Part shown: positions 11,350 through 20,714 of the stretch, piece after piece | Position numbering within the stretch: the stretch's first letter is position 1 | Layout: every line of letters begins with the position of its first letter | From: Escherichia phage A221 | DNA length: 64,000 nucleotides | Sequence record: ON862890.1 | Reading direction: 5' to 3' (one strand) | Notes under the pieces: model-generated | Told to the model about the DNA's origin: nothing | What the model saw: the letters and a program-made list of their open reading frames with translations, nothing else | Database searches by the model: none | Program-made: the position numbers and the translations under genes

Positions 11350-12570
11350 ATGAAAGATAAAGCCCTAGACGTCCCGTACTGCGGTGTCCGTGAAGAAAAG
11401 ATAAAGTCGGCCAAACCGGTTCTCAGTCCGACCCATACCAGCCTGTCTTACGAATGGATGCGCGATCGTTATCAGATCCACGTCAAGAAGGACGTCCAGC
11501 GCCTTCCTGCTCCTTGGACTGATAATCCCATATTACGGCAGGTCAAGTTCTGTAACGTCCGGAGAGAGCACGACAGGCAGTCTCTCAACCTGATCAACAA
11601 CATCGTCAACAACGATGCTCTGGGTATGGCCGACAAGATGTTCAACTGCGTGATGTTTCGCATGTTCAACCTCTGGGATCCAATCCAGGCTATCGGCGGC
11701 GCGATGACGATCAAAGAATTCGCCGAGATCAACCTCGATGCAACCCGCGAACGACTTCAGAAGTTCGAGGCCGACGGCGGTAAGGTATTCACCAATGCCT
11801 TCAACACGGGCGGCCTGAAGCAATGCCTGGCTTTCCCTGAGCTGGTTGTCAACCACAAGGAGCAGCGCTTCGGTGGGATGATGGTGAATCTGATCTGTAA
11901 AGATGGTTCAACCCAGAACATGGATTATAAAGAAGCCAAGGCGATAGCCGAAGCAGAACCGGACTTCTACACCATCGAAGGTTGGGAACCGTACATGCCA
12001 ATGCGTGTCATCCGCTCCCTGAAGGCATTCGTCAACAAGTATCCAAATTACTTCCATGACCTGCTGCGCCTTGGTACTCCTTTGGAAGTATACCAGCGCA
12101 TGTATGACGACATCGAAGGGCTTGGTCCATTCCTGGCCTATCAGATCTGGGTAGACTTCACTTACATTCCTGAATATCCTTTCAGTGAGAACCACTTCAC
12201 GGTTGCTGGACCAGGCTGTCGCGCAGGGATCGACCTGATGTTCCAGGACAAAGATGGCATGACGCATGAAGAATGCATCTTCTGGTTGCGGGACAATCAG
12301 GACGCGGTTTATGGCCCTCTTGGGTATAACAGGGAAGAATTTTGGTCTGCGGAAGAGCCTTGGGATCAGTGTATGAATGTGATGAGCATCGAGAATATGG
12401 CATGTGAATTGTCGAAATATACTCGTTGTGTAGAGGCCATACAGCAAGGTAAAAAACCGCGCGGGAAGGTTGGATATGACGGCGGTGGGGAATACAAAAA
12501 GCGCTGTGATGAAGTCGTGCTCAAACGTGGTTCCGTCAATTTGCTGGACCGTTTGAAGAAACCTGAATAA
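11350..12570 (+). CDS. hypothetical protein (406 aa)
   Basis: ORF track; AAGAGGA RBS; no family recognised. Confidence 0.55.
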   Translation: MKDKALDVPYCGVREEKIKSAKPVLSPTHTSLSYEWMRDRYQIHVKKDVQRLPAPWTDNPILRQVKFCNVRREHDRQSLNLINNIVNNDALGMADKMFNCVMFRMFNLWDPIQAIGGAMTIKEFAEINLDATRERLQKFEADGGKVFTNAFNTGGLKQCLAFPELVVNHKEQRFGGMMVNLICKDGSTQNMDYKEAKAIAEAEPDFYTIEGWEPYMPMRVIRSLKAFVNKYPNYFHDLLRLGTPLEVYQRMYDDIEGLGPFLAYQIWVDFTYIPEYPFSENHFTVAGPGCRAGIDLMFQDKDGMTHEECIFWLRDNQDAVYGPLGYNREEFWSAEEPWDQCMNVMSIENMACELSKYTRCVEAIQQGKKPRGKVGYDGGGEYKKRCDEVVLKRGSVNLLDRLKKPE

Positions 12571-12684: not shown

Positions 12685-14703
12685 ATGTCAGATTTTAAGC
12701 CCTTCGCAGTAGCTGTCAACAATAACGTGCTGGCCATGTCAGCAACTGGTCTGTTCATGACCAACATCGATAAAGATGCTCTGTGGGATCTGTATCTGTC
12801 TTCTTTCCCTGCTGGCACTAACCCGCTTTATCGTGAGCGTACCGAGCACGACTGCACCTGCTGTAAACAATTCATCCGTAACATCGGCGGTGTGGTCACC
12901 ATCGACTCCGACCTGAACGTGATCTCTATTTGGGATAACATTCAGCTGGGTAACGAATACGACGTTGTCGCTGCGGCGCTGTCAGCGTATGTTAAGCAGC
13001 ACGCAATCGTCGACGTGTACTTCAACGACACCAAGAAAGTTGGTGTTGAGTCGAATCACGAAATGAAAGACGGTATTGTCCGCACCTACAACCACTTCCA
13101 CACCGACCTGCTGGGCAGCTATGTTCTGCGGGCAGATACCATCGCTTCTAAGAAGGGTGAAATCCGCCAGGCGATTGAAGTGTTTGAGCGCGGCCTGCGT
13201 GAACTGTCTCTGGAATCGGCTGAAATCGTTCTTGAATTGATTGACCAGAATTCTCTGTATCGCGGTGAAGAGCACAAAGAGGCAGTGCAGGCGTTCGTGG
13301 TGAACAAGACCCTGTACGAACAAACTGCAGAAGAGAAACGCGCTCTGTGGGCTTGGCGCACTGGCTACCGTGCAAACGGTCATACCCCTCACGGCATTCG
13401 TAATACCGTGATTGGCTCTCTGCTGGTAGACCTCAATGAAGGCCGGGATCTGGAAACCGCCGTGAAGTCCTTTGAAGCCAAAGTCGCTCCGACGAACTAC
13501 AAGCGCCCAACCGCGCTGGTCACGAAGTCGATGATTGAAAACGCGCAGAAAGAAGTCGAAGCGCTGGGTCTGACTGATTCACTGGGTCGCCGTTATGCCG
13601 TGTATGACGATCTGACCATCAACAACGTTCTGTTCGCCGATCTGGCAGCTCAGAAGAAGATGGACCCGTTTGCTCAGCTGGCGTCTGAAGTGAAGACTCC
13701 GACCAAGTCCCTGGACAAGGTTGAAGAGATCACGATCGACGACTTCCTGACCAACGTGTTGCCAAAGGCGCATTCCCTGGAAGTACTGGTTGAAAACTCT
13801 CACATTGGCAACCTGATGTCCCTGATCGCTCCGGCTACCGCAGGCGCTCCTAACCTGTTCAAGTGGAACAACGGCTTCAGCTGGTCTTACAATGGCGAAG
13901 TGGCCGACTCTATCAAAGAGCGCGTAAAGACCGCAGGCGGCAATGTCGACAGTTTCCTCCGTGTGTCACTGGCTTGGCATAACAACGACGACCTGGATCT
14001 GAGCATGAACGATCCTCTTCACAACCACGTGTATTATCACAACCGTCGTTCGACAACTGGCGCAACTCTGGACATCGACATGAACGGTATGGACGGCATT
14101 GATCCAAACCGCCGTCCGGTGGAGAACATCTTCTTCAGCGATGAACGCAAGCTGCGTGATGGTCTGTACGAGTTCTATGTCACTAACTTCAGCCAGCGTG
14201 AAACCTGTGATATGGGATTCGAAATCGAAGTTGAATACAAAGGCCAGACCAAGCGTTTTTCGCATCCTGGCCTGAAGCACAAAGATCGCACTCTGGCTGT
14301 TGTGATTGATGTCCGCGCTGGACAAGTGGTAGACATCCGTTCTACCCTGAAAGACGACGCTCGCTCTCAGGAAATCTGGGGCATCAAGACCTCCGTCTTC
14401 CAGAAGGTACAGCTGGTTCTGAACTCACCAAACCATTGGGACGGCGAGCAGACTGGCAACAAGCACGTGTTCTTCATCCTGGAAGGTTGTGCTAACCCTG
14501 TCGGCACCCGTGGTTTCTATAACGAATATCTGAAGCCGGAACTTGATAAACACCGCAAGGTTTTTGAAATGTTAGGTGGTAAGATTAAAGTACAGCCAAG
14601 CACTGAGCAGCTGTCCGGTCTGGGCTTCTCTACCACCCAACGCAACCACGTGTTCGTGAAGGTGAGCGGCTCGTTCAACCGCACTGTGAAAGTTGTGTTC
14701 TAA
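12685..14703 (+). CDS. hypothetical large protein (672 aa)
   Basis: ORF track; AGGAAGATTACATC-ATG initiation motif; no polymerase, ligase or ATPase motifs seen. Confidence 0.6.
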   Translation: MSDFKPFAVAVNNNVLAMSATGLFMTNIDKDALWDLYLSSFPAGTNPLYRERTEHDCTCCKQFIRNIGGVVTIDSDLNVISIWDNIQLGNEYDVVAAALSAYVKQHAIVDVYFNDTKKVGVESNHEMKDGIVRTYNHFHTDLLGSYVLRADTIASKKGEIRQAIEVFERGLRELSLESAEIVLELIDQNSLYRGEEHKEAVQAFVVNKTLYEQTAEEKRALWAWRTGYRANGHTPHGIRNTVIGSLLVDLNEGRDLETAVKSFEAKVAPTNYKRPTALVTKSMIENAQKEVEALGLTDSLGRRYAVYDDLTINNVLFADLAAQKKMDPFAQLASEVKTPTKSLDKVEEITIDDFLTNVLPKAHSLEVLVENSHIGNLMSLIAPATAGAPNLFKWNNGFSWSYNGEVADSIKERVKTAGGNVDSFLRVSLAWHNNDDLDLSMNDPLHNHVYYHNRRSTTGATLDIDMNGMDGIDPNRRPVENIFFSDERKLRDGLYEFYVTNFSQRETCDMGFEIEVEYKGQTKRFSHPGLKHKDRTLAVVIDVRAGQVVDIRSTLKDDARSQEIWGIKTSVFQKVQLVLNSPNHWDGEQTGNKHVFFILEGCANPVGTRGFYNEYLKPELDKHRKVFEMLGGKIKVQPSTEQLSGLGFSTTQRNHVFVKVSGSFNRTVKVVF

Positions 14704-15141: not shown

Positions 15142-15168
15142 AACCCCGCCATGTGCGGGGTTTCTTTT
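15142..15168 (+). terminator. rho-independent terminator
   Basis: Stem AACCCCGC/GCGGGGTT followed by TTTCTTTT. Confidence 0.55.
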
Positions 15169-15179
15169 GGACAAAGAAT

Positions 15180-15590
15180 ATGAAACCTGTTATATGTGAT
15201 TACTGCGGCCTCCCAGCCGAATTCGTCGGTGGTGATGTTCTCTACCCTCATCGCCCTGACCTCCGCAATCTGAAGTTCTGGGTGTGCACTCCATGTGATG
15301 CCCGTGTCGGTTGCCATACCCATGGCGACGGCAGACAACCTTTGGGAAGGATGGCGAATGCCGCTCTCCGTGCTGCTAAGCAGGAAGCCCATAGATCGTT
15401 TGACCCATTGTGGAAAAGCGGAGAGAGGAGCAGGAGCGACGCTTATAGTTGGCTGGCGCATAAGCTGGGGATAAAGAAGCGTGAGTGTCATATTGGCTTG
15501 TTCGATATCGACATGTGCCGTAAAGTAGTTGTTGTCTGTCAACAATACGAGGCACATATCAATGTCAAAGGAAATACAAGAAGCGTTTGA
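15180..15590 (+). CDS. zinc-ribbon protein (137 aa)
   Basis: CDYCG...CTPCDARVGCH four-Cys motif; start chosen after terminator. Confidence 0.5.
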   Translation: MKPVICDYCGLPAEFVGGDVLYPHRPDLRNLKFWVCTPCDARVGCHTHGDGRQPLGRMANAALRAAKQEAHRSFDPLWKSGERSRSDAYSWLAHKLGIKKRECHIGLFDIDMCRKVVVVCQQYEAHINVKGNTRSV

Positions 15591-15873: not shown

Positions 15874-16107
15874 ATGTCTAAAGAGATTATCTTTACCGGG
15901 GCGGCGCTTGACACCATGTATGCCCTGTACAATCGTGGTCCACTGAGCATTGGCGATATCCCGTCTAAGTCAGGTCTGGACTTCCTGTTACGACATAAGC
16001 TGGTTGTGGCTGTGGTGGTCAGGGGTGAAACGCAATACGCCGGGTCGATGGCCATGGCTTCCCACTACAAACGTCAGACATGGAAGGGTGCTTCCTCCAA
16101 ATCCTGA
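15874..16107 (+). CDS. hypothetical protein (77 aa)
   Basis: ORF track. Confidence 0.4.
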   Translation: MSKEIIFTGAALDTMYALYNRGPLSIGDIPSKSGLDFLLRHKLVVAVVVRGETQYAGSMAMASHYKRQTWKGASSKS

Positions 16108-16261
16108 GTTTGTCAAAACCTTTTCAATATCAATAACGTCCAGTGTAAATGCTGGGCGTTTCAATTAACTCTTCGCAGTATAATATGCCATGACTAACAA
16201 ACAGAGGCCTGGCCCATGTCCGTGAAATACCTGGTGTTACTGAAGTGAAGGTCGACTAACC

Positions 16262-16432
16262 ATGACAGAACCATTCAAGAAAGCTGGTCTAGACACCATC
16301 GACCTCAGCTTTAAACCGAGCGAAACGCTGATGAGTCAGATTGAACTCAATCGCGACTTCCTTGAATATATGCTGGTCAAGCCGGAAGGTGAGGCCGAAG
16401 ACAACCCTGAAGAAGGCAATAACGATGATTGA
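16262..16432 (+). CDS. small acidic protein (56 aa)
   Basis: Translated by hand (MTEPFKKAGLDTIDLSF...EEGNNDD); stop overlaps vWA start. Confidence 0.3.
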   Translation: MTEPFKKAGLDTIDLSFKPSETLMSQIELNRDFLEYMLVKPEGEAEDNPEEGNNDD

Positions 16433-18626
16433 ATCATTAGAATTTAAGAATGCGGTTGCGACTGCTGCCCCGTCCAACCATGTAATCGTTGTAGACATTT
16501 CTGGCTCTATGTACCGTGCACTCCCTGAAGTCCGTAAGCATCTGAAGGAGAACCTGCCTTCCCTGGTGAAACCGGAAGACACTGTGAGTGTTCTATACTT
16601 CTCATCTCGTGGCGACTTTGGCACTGTGTTCGCTGGTCGCCAGGTTAGTGCTGCGTCTGACCTGAGCGAGCTGAACAAACTGATCGACCGCTTCCTACAA
16701 CCATCTGGCTGTACTGGTTTTGTTGAGCCGTTGAAACTGGCGATGGACACTGCTCGTGGCCTGAAGAAGCCTGGCTATGTCAACAACCTGGCGTTCATGA
16801 CTGACGGGTATGACAACTGCTGGCGTACCAACGAAATTCTACTGGTTGCTGAGACCCTGCCATTTGCTTTCGATAACATTACATTTATCGAATATGGCTG
16901 GTACTGTAACCGCGAACTGCTGGCGCAGATGGCCGAACGCTCTGGTGCTACTCACGTGTTTGCCGAAGGTCAGACCGAATACCAGACCGAGCTGGAAAAC
17001 GTGCTGAAGTCATCAGTGCCGAAGGTGGTTGTTGATGTGCCTCTGTTATACACCCATGCTATCTATGTTGAAAACGGCGTAGCAACTGTTCTGGCGGTAC
17101 AGCCGGATGAAGACCATCCTATCGGCCACGTGAGCATCCCTGAGAGCGTCACCAAGCTGTGGGTTGTAAACCCTAACATGATCGACCAGATGGATAGCCT
17201 GACGGACATCCAGGCGGCATACGTGCTGGCGTTCTACGGCGTACACATCATGGACGCGGACCTGGTGTGGGCTGCACTGAAGAAAACGGGTGACGTTCGC
17301 TTCATCAAACAGTACAGCAACTGCTTCACCAAGCAGGACTACTCCAACATCAAGAACGATCTGGTTCAGGCGATTGTTGACGACCAGCTGCGCGGCGTTG
17401 ACGGTATTGACTATGACCTGGTTCCAGCTGAAGATGCGACCACCGTCGTTGATGTGCTGACGTACCTGGCTGAAGCTGGTGTGCCTGTTGCTACCAAGCA
17501 TCCGATGTTCTCCTATAAGAGCATCGGGCGCGGTACTGTGCAGAAAACCGACGACACCGAAGACAAGCTGGCAGAACAGATCGCGAATGCTCAGTCCAAA
17601 GAAGAGCGTAAAGCCCTGGCTCTCAAGCTGGCAGAGCACGAAGAGTGGAACCCGACGTTCGAACCTACCAACGACCTGGGTGTTGTGCCAATCAGCGATT
17701 TGGTCTATAACTCCGAGCGCCCGAACATCAGTGTGCGTACAATTCAACACGGTACTGTGGCTGTGCCTGAATTCGCACAGAAGAAGTTTGGCCTGCCTGA
17801 AGAACTGGATACTTTCCAGTGGCGCAACTACACCATCGTCAAAGACGGTATCATTAACGTGAAGACTCTGCCGTTCAAGGCTGATATCGAAGTTGTACAG
17901 AAGCTGATCGAAATGGGTGTCCACGTGTTTGGTGGTCCGGAAGTGTTCATCCTGAACCTGGAAAGCGTACCGCTGGTCAACCGCGCCATGGTCAAAAACA
18001 TCAGTGCTGCTCAGTTCTTTGCGGATAATGTCCGTCTGGAAGCCCTGAAAGGCAAGCAGAAGGTGCTGAAGTTCTATCGAGACGCCCTGGTTGGTAAGGG
18101 CAACGCCAAAGGCCTGGCAGTACAGTACGGCGCTGAGGCGGCCGAGTTCCTGTCCTCCTACGGCATCCGCGATTACGGCTTCTCACCGAAGACTGAGACC
18201 AAAGAGTCTACCGACTTCTACATGAGCCGTGAGCTGAACGTGAAGATCGCTGGCGCTTCTTCTCTACCGTCTATCGCAGCGGTACAGAAGAAGATTGCCG
18301 AGAACAAGAAACTCAATGCTGGTGACTTGTTCATCGCCAATGCGCTGAAGGAGTACGAAGCATTCGTGAAGTCTCCTATGATCACTGCCGTGCCTGAAGC
18401 CTTACAGAAACAGCTGATCGAAAACTGGATCGACGCTGCTGCCAAGGCGGCCATCACCGAAGTCCGTGCCCTGAACAAGACACTGTCTAAAGTGGTGTAT
18501 GGTATCGTTGCTGGCCACGGCTGGTTCACCGACCTCGACCTGGAAGAGTCCACCATGGAAGTTGAAGTGGATGGCGTGAAGTACAAGGTCACTGCCGAAC
18601 TGACAGAGAAAGAAATCAAAATCTAA
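16425..18626 (+). CDS. large protein with N-terminal von Willebrand factor A (vWA) domain (734 aa)
   Basis: MIDAS-like VVDISGSM and downstream FMTDGYDN; about 500 aa C-terminal region unassigned; start at internal ATG. Confidence 0.7.
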   Translation: MIESLEFKNAVATAAPSNHVIVVDISGSMYRALPEVRKHLKENLPSLVKPEDTVSVLYFSSRGDFGTVFAGRQVSAASDLSELNKLIDRFLQPSGCTGFVEPLKLAMDTARGLKKPGYVNNLAFMTDGYDNCWRTNEILLVAETLPFAFDNITFIEYGWYCNRELLAQMAERSGATHVFAEGQTEYQTELENVLKSSVPKVVVDVPLLYTHAIYVENGVATVLAVQPDEDHPIGHVSIPESVTKLWVVNPNMIDQMDSLTDIQAAYVLAFYGVHIMDADLVWAALKKTGDVRFIKQYSNCFTKQDYSNIKNDLVQAIVDDQLRGVDGIDYDLVPAEDATTVVDVLTYLAEAGVPVATKHPMFSYKSIGRGTVQKTDDTEDKLAEQIANAQSKEERKALALKLAEHEEWNPTFEPTNDLGVVPISDLVYNSERPNISVRTIQHGTVAVPEFAQKKFGLPEELDTFQWRNYTIVKDGIINVKTLPFKADIEVVQKLIEMGVHVFGGPEVFILNLESVPLVNRAMVKNISAAQFFADNVRLEALKGKQKVLKFYRDALVGKGNAKGLAVQYGAEAAEFLSSYGIRDYGFSPKTETKESTDFYMSRELNVKIAGASSLPSIAAVQKKIAENKKLNAGDLFIANALKEYEAFVKSPMITAVPEALQKQLIENWIDAAAKAAITEVRALNKTLSKVVYGIVAGHGWFTDLDLEESTMEVEVDGVKYKVTAELTEKEIKI

Positions 18627-18632
18627 TCCAAC

Positions 18633-18657
18633 GGGCGGGGCAACCCGCCTTTCTTTG
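18633..18657 (+). terminator. rho-independent terminator
   Basis: Stem GGCGGG/CCCGCC, loop GCAA, then TTTCTTT. Confidence 0.5.
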
Positions 18658-18668
18658 GGAGAAGTAGC

Positions 18669-18992
18669 ATGAGCAGTAAACCAACATATGTTGAAGTCAT
18701 GCGTCATCTGGCTCAGTACGCCACCGACAATCTGAATATGGATCTGTGGCGTGACGATGACAAGCGCAAATTGCTGGACGACGTGGCATCTCAGAACGAG
18801 GACGCCCTGGACAAGCTGGCTGGCCTCCGTACCAAGAAAGACCTCGGTGGTGACGAACTGGATGCCATCGAAATCGTAATGGAACTAGAAGAAGAGTTTC
18901 AGGTCGAAATCGACGACGGGTGGCTAGGTAGTAAAGGCGATGACCCGACCATGGGTGAACTCGCTGAACTCGTGGTTGCCCTGCGCAAATAA
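18669..18992 (+). CDS. acyl-carrier-protein-like protein with Glu in place of the phosphopantetheine-attachment Ser
   Basis: DLGGDELDAIEIVMELEEEFQVEID parallels ACP [24 protein letters not shown]; GGGAG RBS. Confidence 0.55.
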   Translation: MSSKPTYVEVMRHLAQYATDNLNMDLWRDDDKRKLLDDVASQNEDALDKLAGLRTKKDLGGDELDAIEIVMELEEEFQVEIDDGWLGSKGDDPTMGELAELVVALRK

Positions 18993-20264: not shown

Positions 20265-20714
20265 ATGTTCCTTACATCTTTTATTGACTGGTTGAACATC
20301 ATTAACGGCCTGAGGATTCCTGTTGGGAACCTCGGGCTTTCTCGTTCTTCTATGCCGCAAATCGATGCCGACAAACAAGAAGATTTTCACAAATATCTTG
20401 AAGACAACGGCGTGTCCATAGATGCTGTGCAAGTGCCCATCAAAATGCTTCGTCTCACCCAGAACGAAATCAACAAGATGAAGGTCTGGAAGATCATGAA
20501 GAACATCAGAAATAAGAAACCTATGGGTCGAGTTTGGGTGTCTTCTGACAATTACGTTGTTGACGGTTCTCACCGATTTGTCGCTGCGTTGAACATGGAC
20601 GGCAAACAGCGCATGAAGGTCTACAAAGTTGATTTGCCAGCGATGGAATTTGTTAAACTCGCTAAACAGTTTCAGGGTGTGCGATACAGAACGGTCTCAG
20701 ATTCGAGATACTAA
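20265..20714 (+). CDS. hypothetical protein, possible ParB-like nuclease domain
   Basis: GAGGTG RBS; motif VVDGSHRFVAAL resembles ParB/Srx DGxHR; weak. Confidence 0.45.
   Translation: MFLTSFIDWLNIINGLRIPVGNLGLSRSSMPQIDADKQEDFHKYLEDNGVSIDAVQVPIKMLRLTQNEINKMKVWKIMKNIRNKKPMGRVWVSSDNYVVDGSHRFVAALNMDGKQRMKVYKVDLPAMEFVKLAKQFQGVRYRTVSDSRY

Follow-up and report, generated by a model that had tools for sequence, protein, structure and literature searches.

A strictly conserved MIDAS in a large, essentially phage-only family of vWA-domain proteins that includes a gene of Escherichia phage A221

Von Willebrand factor A (vWA) domains that carry an adhesion site dependent on metal ions (MIDAS) are well understood as metal-dependent binding modules, and in the characterized examples, including integrin I-domains, Rea1, and the partners of MoxR-type AAA+ ATPases, the cation at this site binds an acidic residue of the partner protein. 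Here, we compare with described vWA systems a protein encoded in a 64,000-nucleotide stretch of Escherichia phage A221 DNA (ON862890.1; hereafter, the window). Because the vWA gene is 96.6% identical at the DNA level to that of Escherichia phage vB_EcoM-RPN242 and ~90% identical to that of Shigella phage Ag3, the window can be assigned to an Agtrevirus-like member of the Ackermannviridae. The closest known systems include the COPII coat subunits Sec23 and Sec24 and ArnB of Sulfolobus (PDB 8s05/5a8j), a 380-aa protein with the FHA/zinc-finger protein ArnA and kinases as its partners. In ArnB, the vWA domain is combined with a β-sandwich and a helical domain into what has been described as the "Sec23/24 core motif" (PMC12852372), and the same core is found in the Catenulispora protein 4fx5. 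The zinc finger is present in cis in Sec23/24 and is contributed in trans, by ArnA, in the case of ArnB.

The A221 gene is translated without interruption into 733 codons followed by a stop; the 734-aa open reading frame (ORF) reported at this place in an earlier note on the window is thus intact, its length being 733 residues plus the stop codon. The N-terminal region matches the Pfam VWA family (PF00092) over residues 20-184, where the score of 26.8 bits (E = 7e-6) exceeds the gathering cut-off of 23.8, and this assignment is supported by matches to VWA_3 and VWA_2. The motifs VVDISGSM and FMTDGYDN, from which the earlier note had recognized an N-terminal vWA domain with a MIDAS, occupy residues 22-29 and 124-131, respectively, and together with an intervening threonine complete the DxSxS...T...D signature. 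We assessed the conservation of this site in two alignments, A1 (103 sequences) and A3 (46 sequences), the latter adding an AR9-type clade at 20-25% identity. D24, S26, S28, T97, and D127 show no variation in either alignment, from 90% down to 20% identity. The Rossmann-like α/β fold of vWA domains is established as well; both checks on which the earlier note had staked its assignment, a vWA fold in a structure prediction and conservation of the MIDAS residues among homologs, therefore came out in its favor. Overall, these results demonstrate that the vWA domain of the phage protein is genuine and that its MIDAS is strictly conserved. By analogy with the characterized domains, this site most likely holds a divalent cation, the coordination of which is completed by an acidic or phosphorylated residue of a partner; it is from this analogy that we infer both metal binding and the nature of the ligand.

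The vWA domain is not an isolated module. Such domains are about 180 residues long, and the alignments therefore extend over the β-strands of residues 200-248 and part of the next helices. In a profile search against PDB sequences, ArnB and ITIH1 each matched the N-terminal ~200 positions only (E = 6e-5), and by sequence, the vWA domain is closer to ArnB and to ITIH-type domains than to the partners of MoxR. In the phage protein, the vWA domain is packed on a β-sandwich that is followed by a helical domain and hence is embedded in an ArnB/Sec23-24-like core. The protein differs from ArnB in the presence of ~380-480 extra residues without a known fold, in sequence (11-16% identity), and in the lack of a conserved ArnA-, kinase-, or phosphatase-like gene in its neighborhood; neither a zinc-finger element nor an FHA/kinase or gelsolin partner module, as in the ArnB and Sec23/24 systems, was detected. 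Of the Ku-like, TROVE-like, and chelatase-like folds for which the earlier note had proposed a search, the first two were not detected. The DNA-encircling β-barrel core and C-terminal arm that follow the vWA domain of Ku70/80 were not found, and in comparison with Ro60, the vWA domain is N-terminal, with no Pfam TROVE match and no helical-ring fold match; the likeness to Ku70/Ku80 and Ro60 is limited to a vWA domain in a nucleic-acid-related context. ViaA, CbbO, NorD, and BchD/ChlD differ from the phage protein in domain order and in the C-terminal module, and the phage protein has no linked AAA+ ATPase.

Residues ~200-733 have no match in Pfam, NCBIfam, PADLOC, or functional PHROG profiles, in agreement with the earlier note, which had left a C-terminal region of ~500 aa unassigned. 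Searches directed at the C-terminal domain (Pfam with the query and 10 diverse homologs, NCBIfam, PADLOC, PHROG with sub-segments, and a PDB profile) yielded only vWA and phrog_2426, and a structure search of BFVD with the C-terminus retrieved family members, one weak relative from Bacillus phage SP-15, and nothing else. About two thirds of the protein is thus predicted, with confidence, to form a module without a structural or sequence relative among solved structures. The invariant residues of the C-terminal part include D290, R323, Y364, N434, S436, K546, D597, and Y599; because each half of the protein carries invariant residues, both are under purifying selection.

The protein matches PHROG 2426 ("unknown function") over its entire length (residues 1-733 on profile positions 2-736; E = 0, 1229.7 bits), sub-segments of the protein match this PHROG and no other, and several phage records already name the gene "vWFA/VWA domain-containing protein". 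The gene and its vWA label are therefore already in the databases, the vWA part being the only one ever named. We identified at least 202 full-length homologs. A HMMER scan with the C-terminal part alone retrieved 1026 clusters at 50% identity, 406 of them with E values below 1e-30, and among the matches listed (150 of the 1026 clusters), nearly all are proteins of ~680-820 aa in which the match starts near residue 200-320, indicating that the combination of the vWA domain with the C-terminal module is fixed. When the AR9 C-terminus was used as the query, the same architecture was recovered throughout and no alternative domain fusions were found, and domain fusions were accordingly dropped as a hint to function. 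Searches with tblastn yielded 503 phage records, which come from the Ackermannviridae, from Slopekvirus and Pseudotevenvirus (both at 48-50% identity), from Pseudomonas phage pf16 and Bacillus phage AR9, and from Rhizobium phages and the Ralstonia phage RP13. The Ackermannviridae orthologs, such as LIMEstone1 ORF108, ChubbyThor gp158, and Sajous1 gp185, match over the full length (83-97% identity, E = 0), occupy the same place upstream of a gene resembling those for acyl carrier proteins (ACPs), and show no difference of substance. In IMG/VR, 80 vWA loci were found, on contigs of up to 512 kb, and the carriers are almost exclusively large myoviruses with genomes of 138-512 kb. By contrast with this abundance in phages, only 8 loci were detected in 185,579 species genomes (one per species), at least one of which is clearly a phage contig (178 kb, with a homolog about 49% identical to the query); cellular homologs were thus rejected, and the family is huge and essentially phage-only. 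Two homologs, P0120 (locus L003, on a 294-kb scaffold and also recorded on a 1.36-Mb contig) and P0101 (locus L101), have as neighbors genes for ankyrin repeats, a ClpB-like AAA+ protein, MBOAT, GDSL lipases, and a type II secretion system ATPase, with EF-G also present near the latter, and the carrier could be either a bacterial symbiont that gained the gene or a very large phage.

To search for partners, ORFs were called in 81 loci and clustered by BLAST, and iterative hidden Markov model (HMM) searches were performed with 21 neighbors from the window, the loci being grouped into 29 lineages defined at 60% identity. No family of neighbors is common to more than 4 of the 29 lineages, and the neighbors of the A221 gene are confined to Ackermannviridae-type lineages, beyond which no conserved operon partner was found by either approach. 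No AAA+/MoxR gene is present within ±8 kb in any lineage, none of the annotated neighbor families is an AAA+ ATPase, and in the fully annotated genome of the relative CAU_YEP3, the clamp loader is the only annotated AAA+ protein, which extends to the 29 lineages the earlier note's remark that no ATPase partner is obvious nearby. These results show that the family has no conserved partner gene and no ATPase of its own. The DUF3268 zinc-finger protein was of interest as an ArnA-like partner because ArnB binds a zinc finger; its gene lies near the vWA gene in 4 of the 29 lineages, but its distribution among phages differs, and this candidate was rejected. In the window, it is encoded at 15153-15590 (+). 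The 681 phage records in which tblastn detected it belong mostly to siphophages of 40-60 kb that infect Pseudomonas, Vibrio, and Xanthomonas; it is therefore a small phage gene of wide mobility. The vWA gene of four distant lineages is divergent from a gp23 capsid/scaffold cluster. This conserved block (loci L072, L073, L078, L082, L084, and L087) encodes a major capsid protein of the gp23 type, a scaffold-like protein that is very acidic, and two uncharacterized proteins of ~170 and ~275 aa, and the vWA gene is followed by a glycosyltransferase gene. The T4-type late-promoter motif TATAAATA occurs upstream of the vWA gene in 3 of the 29 lineages, compared with 1.4% of background genes, and lies in the intergenic region of L073, L084, and L082.

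Direct data on expression and on presence in particles come from relatives. LIMEstone1 ORF108, which is 92% identical to the A221 protein and likewise precedes the ACP-like gene, is among the 39 proteins identified by mass spectrometry (MS) in purified LIMEstone1 virions, with 6 unique peptides and 11.4% coverage, compared with 1 peptide each for rIIB, ligase, PhoH, and gp44, which the authors had not expected and which are presumed to be carry-over (PMC3296691), and it is flagged "confirmed structural protein" in the GenBank record HE600015. The AR9 protein g068 is a full-length homolog (E = 6e-38), the gene of which has a mapped late promoter and reaches 0.96, 105.6, and 431.5 fragments per kilobase of transcript per million mapped reads at 5, 20, and 40 min, respectively (PMC5312081, Tables S3 and S4); our literature search found no transcriptome for the Ackermannviridae. 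Setting the late expression of the AR9 gene, the virion data from LIMEstone1, and the contexts with a capsid cluster or a late promoter against the contrary data discussed below, we tentatively favor, at somewhat less than an even chance, a role as a late-acting assembly adaptor or a low-copy packaged protein. Late in infection, the protein would serve as a MIDAS-dependent adaptor in virion assembly and/or travel as a low-copy passenger of the particle. The MIDAS would hold a divalent cation and clamp a carboxylate or phosphate of a partner protein; the vWA domain, β-sandwich, and first helices form the ArnB/Sec23-24-like scaffold core, and the family-specific module of the remaining ~380-480 residues would supply a second activity or binding surface, all without a dedicated AAA+ (MoxR) motor.

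Several observations weigh against this role. In CsCl-purified virions of the Kuttervirus Sajous1, the vWA protein yielded 1 spectrum, a contaminant-level signal on a par with that of thymidylate synthase or dUTPase, versus 924 for the capsid protein (PMC10892097). AR9 g068 bears no virion flag in a record that marks the virion proteins identified by MS, the model of the C-terminal region resembles no known phage structural protein, and a promoter scan found no TATAAATA near the vWA gene in this window. The genomic context points elsewhere, too. In the Ackermannviridae and T4-like genomes, the gene is located among, and on the same strand as, genes for replication and nucleotide metabolism; in the window, it is surrounded by the clamp loader, regA, and helicase genes, and in other lineages, it lies between frd/td and cd, right behind a Dda-like helicase gene, on the downstream side of nrdAB, in RP13 between dut and nrdAB, or in pf16 beside topoisomerase II and primase. 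Alternatively, the protein might scaffold the phage's machinery for DNA replication or nucleotide metabolism in the cytoplasm, with the virion signal representing carry-over and the vWA core working in the manner of the intracellular vWA scaffolds TFIIH p44/p34, Rpn10, Ku, Sec23/24, and INTS13/14. We consider this the strongest of the competing explanations, if an unlikely one. Context of this type is weak evidence because a large part of the genes in such genomes serve DNA metabolism, and no single neighbor is conserved. Furthermore, the AR9 homolog is transcribed late, the LIMEstone1 protein was detected with 6 peptides as opposed to 1 for gp44, ligase, or rIIB, and the protein has an acidic overall character and shows no obvious surface for binding DNA.

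A role in host takeover or counter-defense, in which a conserved host protein would be sequestered or blocked by the MIDAS, or the phage protein would be a decoy for vWA-based conflict systems of the host, appears quite improbable. Cellular vWA proteins reportedly take part in conflict systems, the gene of Slopekvirus and Pseudotevenvirus lies beside a DNA methyltransferase gene in an extended series of small accessory genes, as is typical of hyperplastic early regions, and a packaged protein could act on the host ahead of any phage gene expression. However, there is no match in PADLOC, and whereas typical anti-defense genes are small, patchily distributed, and fast-evolving, this one encodes an 81-kDa protein with a rigid architecture and many invariant residues, kept in phages that infect, as far as hosts were determined, Proteobacteria and Bacillus; late transcription in AR9 also fits poorly unless the protein is packaged. 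It is very unlikely that the protein is a co-chaperone that, similarly to ViaA, CbbO, NorD, and the D subunit of Mg-chelatase, recruits a MoxR-type AAA+ ATPase of the host (for instance, RavA) to remodel or metal-load a phage protein: the absence of AAA+/MoxR genes next to the gene in the 29 lineages and from the annotation of a whole relative genome, the ArnB/ITIH-type affinity of the vWA domain, and hosts too diverse to have one MoxR in common all argue against it. Finally, participation in thymidine hypermodification (5-NeOmdU) or another DNA-modification system, for which the HMUDK_hel match of the product of the 11350-12570 neighbor, the weak structural relative in SP-15, and the homologs in AR9, with its deoxyuridine-containing DNA, could be cited, is largely refuted: five other ViI proteins (gp67, gp160, gp226, gp243, and gp247) rebuild 5-NeOmdU in lysates without the vWA protein (PMC5889632), the other thymidine-hypermodifying phages of that study, ΦW-14, SP10, and M6, are absent from the tblastn matches listed (60 of 503 records) and from the organism summary, and linkage to the kinase-type gene is limited to Ackermannviridae-type lineages.

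Returning to the assembly or packaged role, a bolder version of it, which we regard as rather doubtful, is that T4-like, ViI-like, and AR9-like large myoviruses share a hitherto unrecognized, virion-borne class of MIDAS proteins. A few copies would be packaged for delivery along with the DNA or else be incorporated into the particle, and the MIDAS clamp and the ~400-residue domain of new fold would seize a conserved target.

The features of the locus are listed in Table 1. The longest ORF in the vWA frame starts at TTG 16341; all homologs start at the position of ATG 16425 (MIxxIEF...), which we therefore take as the start codon. The encoded protein has a mass of 81.2 kDa and a pI of 5.1, a search for transmembrane segments found no hydrophobic stretch of membrane-spanning length, and we read it as a soluble, acidic accessory protein. 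A terminator-like hairpin, a match to the consensus only, begins 7 nt past the stop codon, and the LIMEstone1 record carries a terminator annotation in the corresponding place.

Table 1. Coordinates of the vWA gene, its parts, and the flanking elements in the window
Feature	Position	Strand	Basis or remarks
56-aa acidic protein gene	16262..16432	+	pI 4.1, phrog_8656
vWA/MIDAS protein gene, stop codon included	16425..18626	+	ORF, translation, full-length phrog_2426 match
vWA domain, residues 1-196	16425..17012	+	
MIDAS motif D24-I-S26-G-S28	16494..16508	+	invariant in alignments A1 and A3
MIDAS threonine T97	16713..16715	+	invariant in A1 and A3
MIDAS aspartate D127 (inside FMTDGYDN)	16803..16805	+	invariant in A1 and A3
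β-sandwich (residues ~197-250) and helical domain (~251-352)	17013..17480	+	with vWA, resemble the ArnB/4fx5/Sec24 core
Family-specific C-terminal module, residues ~353-733	17481..18623	+	predicted; two α/β sub-domains, long helices
Terminator-like GC hairpin and T-run	18633..18658 (hairpin 18633-18650)	+	consensus scan

The small acidic ORF that the earlier note had seen across the start of the vWA gene is a real, conserved phage gene. Its 8-nt overlap with the start of the vWA gene suggests that the two are translationally coupled, and the ORF corresponds to the C-terminal third of LIMEstone1 ORF109 (181 aa). Given this overlap and the conserved ...EEGNNDD end of the 56-aa protein, a general role as the MIDAS ligand was attractive; this idea was rejected, as an acidic-tailed ORF is found upstream in merely 2 of the 29 lineages. 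The HMM of the 56-aa protein has matches in lineage 0 only. It is thus a lineage-specific neighbor and not a family-wide partner, and could be a lineage-specific MIDAS ligand. In relatives, a separate 119-aa gene lies just upstream of the counterpart of the 56-aa ORF, and in the window, this gene is cut to a remnant of ~15 codons (…REIPGVTEVKVD*, about 16212-16259), with an unrelated 77-aa ORF (15874-16107) in its place; the segment 15874-16432 looks like a local gene replacement.

In relatives, the vWA gene is part of a co-directional block that encodes the clamp loader, regA, a MazG-like nucleoside triphosphate pyrophosphohydrolase, a 5-hmdU-kinase/aGPT-type enzyme, a 672-aa protein, the DUF3268 zinc-finger protein, small ORFs, the vWA protein, the ACP-like protein, spanins, and a helicase. 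The counterpart of the kinase-type gene in the window, 11350-12570 (+), encodes a product that matches PF18723 (HMUDK_hel, 5-hmdU DNA kinase helical domain; E = 3e-81), is labeled aGPT-pyrophosphorylase clade 1 in relatives, and fits the thymidine hypermodification pathway of ViI-like phages. The 672-aa phrog_1735 protein (12685-14703, +), likewise large and conserved, has no match in Pfam, NCBIfam, or PADLOC; the labels in relatives vary between "putative DNA-directed RNA polymerase" and "coil containing protein". Sajous1 gp179 and gp180, which carry the RNA-polymerase label and may be its orthologs, gave a few spectra in virion MS. Immediately downstream of the vWA gene, past the terminator-like hairpin, is the ACP-like gene (18669-18992, +; PP-binding, E = 1e-5, short of the NCBIfam ACP cut-offs), which has no obvious synthase or transferase gene nearby and is kept in Ackermannviridae-type lineages only. 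Farther downstream, the 149-aa ORF at 20265-20714 (+) appears, by position, to be the counterpart of LIMEstone1 ORF101 ("unknown structural protein; confirmed structural protein"), and if so, virion proteins confirmed by MS are dotted through the replication-type region.

What is new here is the scale of the family (more than 1000 clusters at 50% identity), its rigid architecture, and its restriction to phages, along with the absence of a fold relative for about two thirds of the protein and of an ATPase partner or conserved neighbor for a MIDAS protein. The family ranks among the larger conserved unknowns of phages with therapeutic relevance, namely, the Ackermannviridae and the Klebsiella phages of the Slopekvirus group. 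The hints of virion association conflict between relatives, and a defined role would fill a gap in the biology of large phages, toward which the invariant MIDAS offers clean point mutants. If the proposal of a virion-borne class of MIDAS proteins is true, it would represent the first case in which a MIDAS operates in the infection or assembly of tailed phages without the need for an AAA+ motor.

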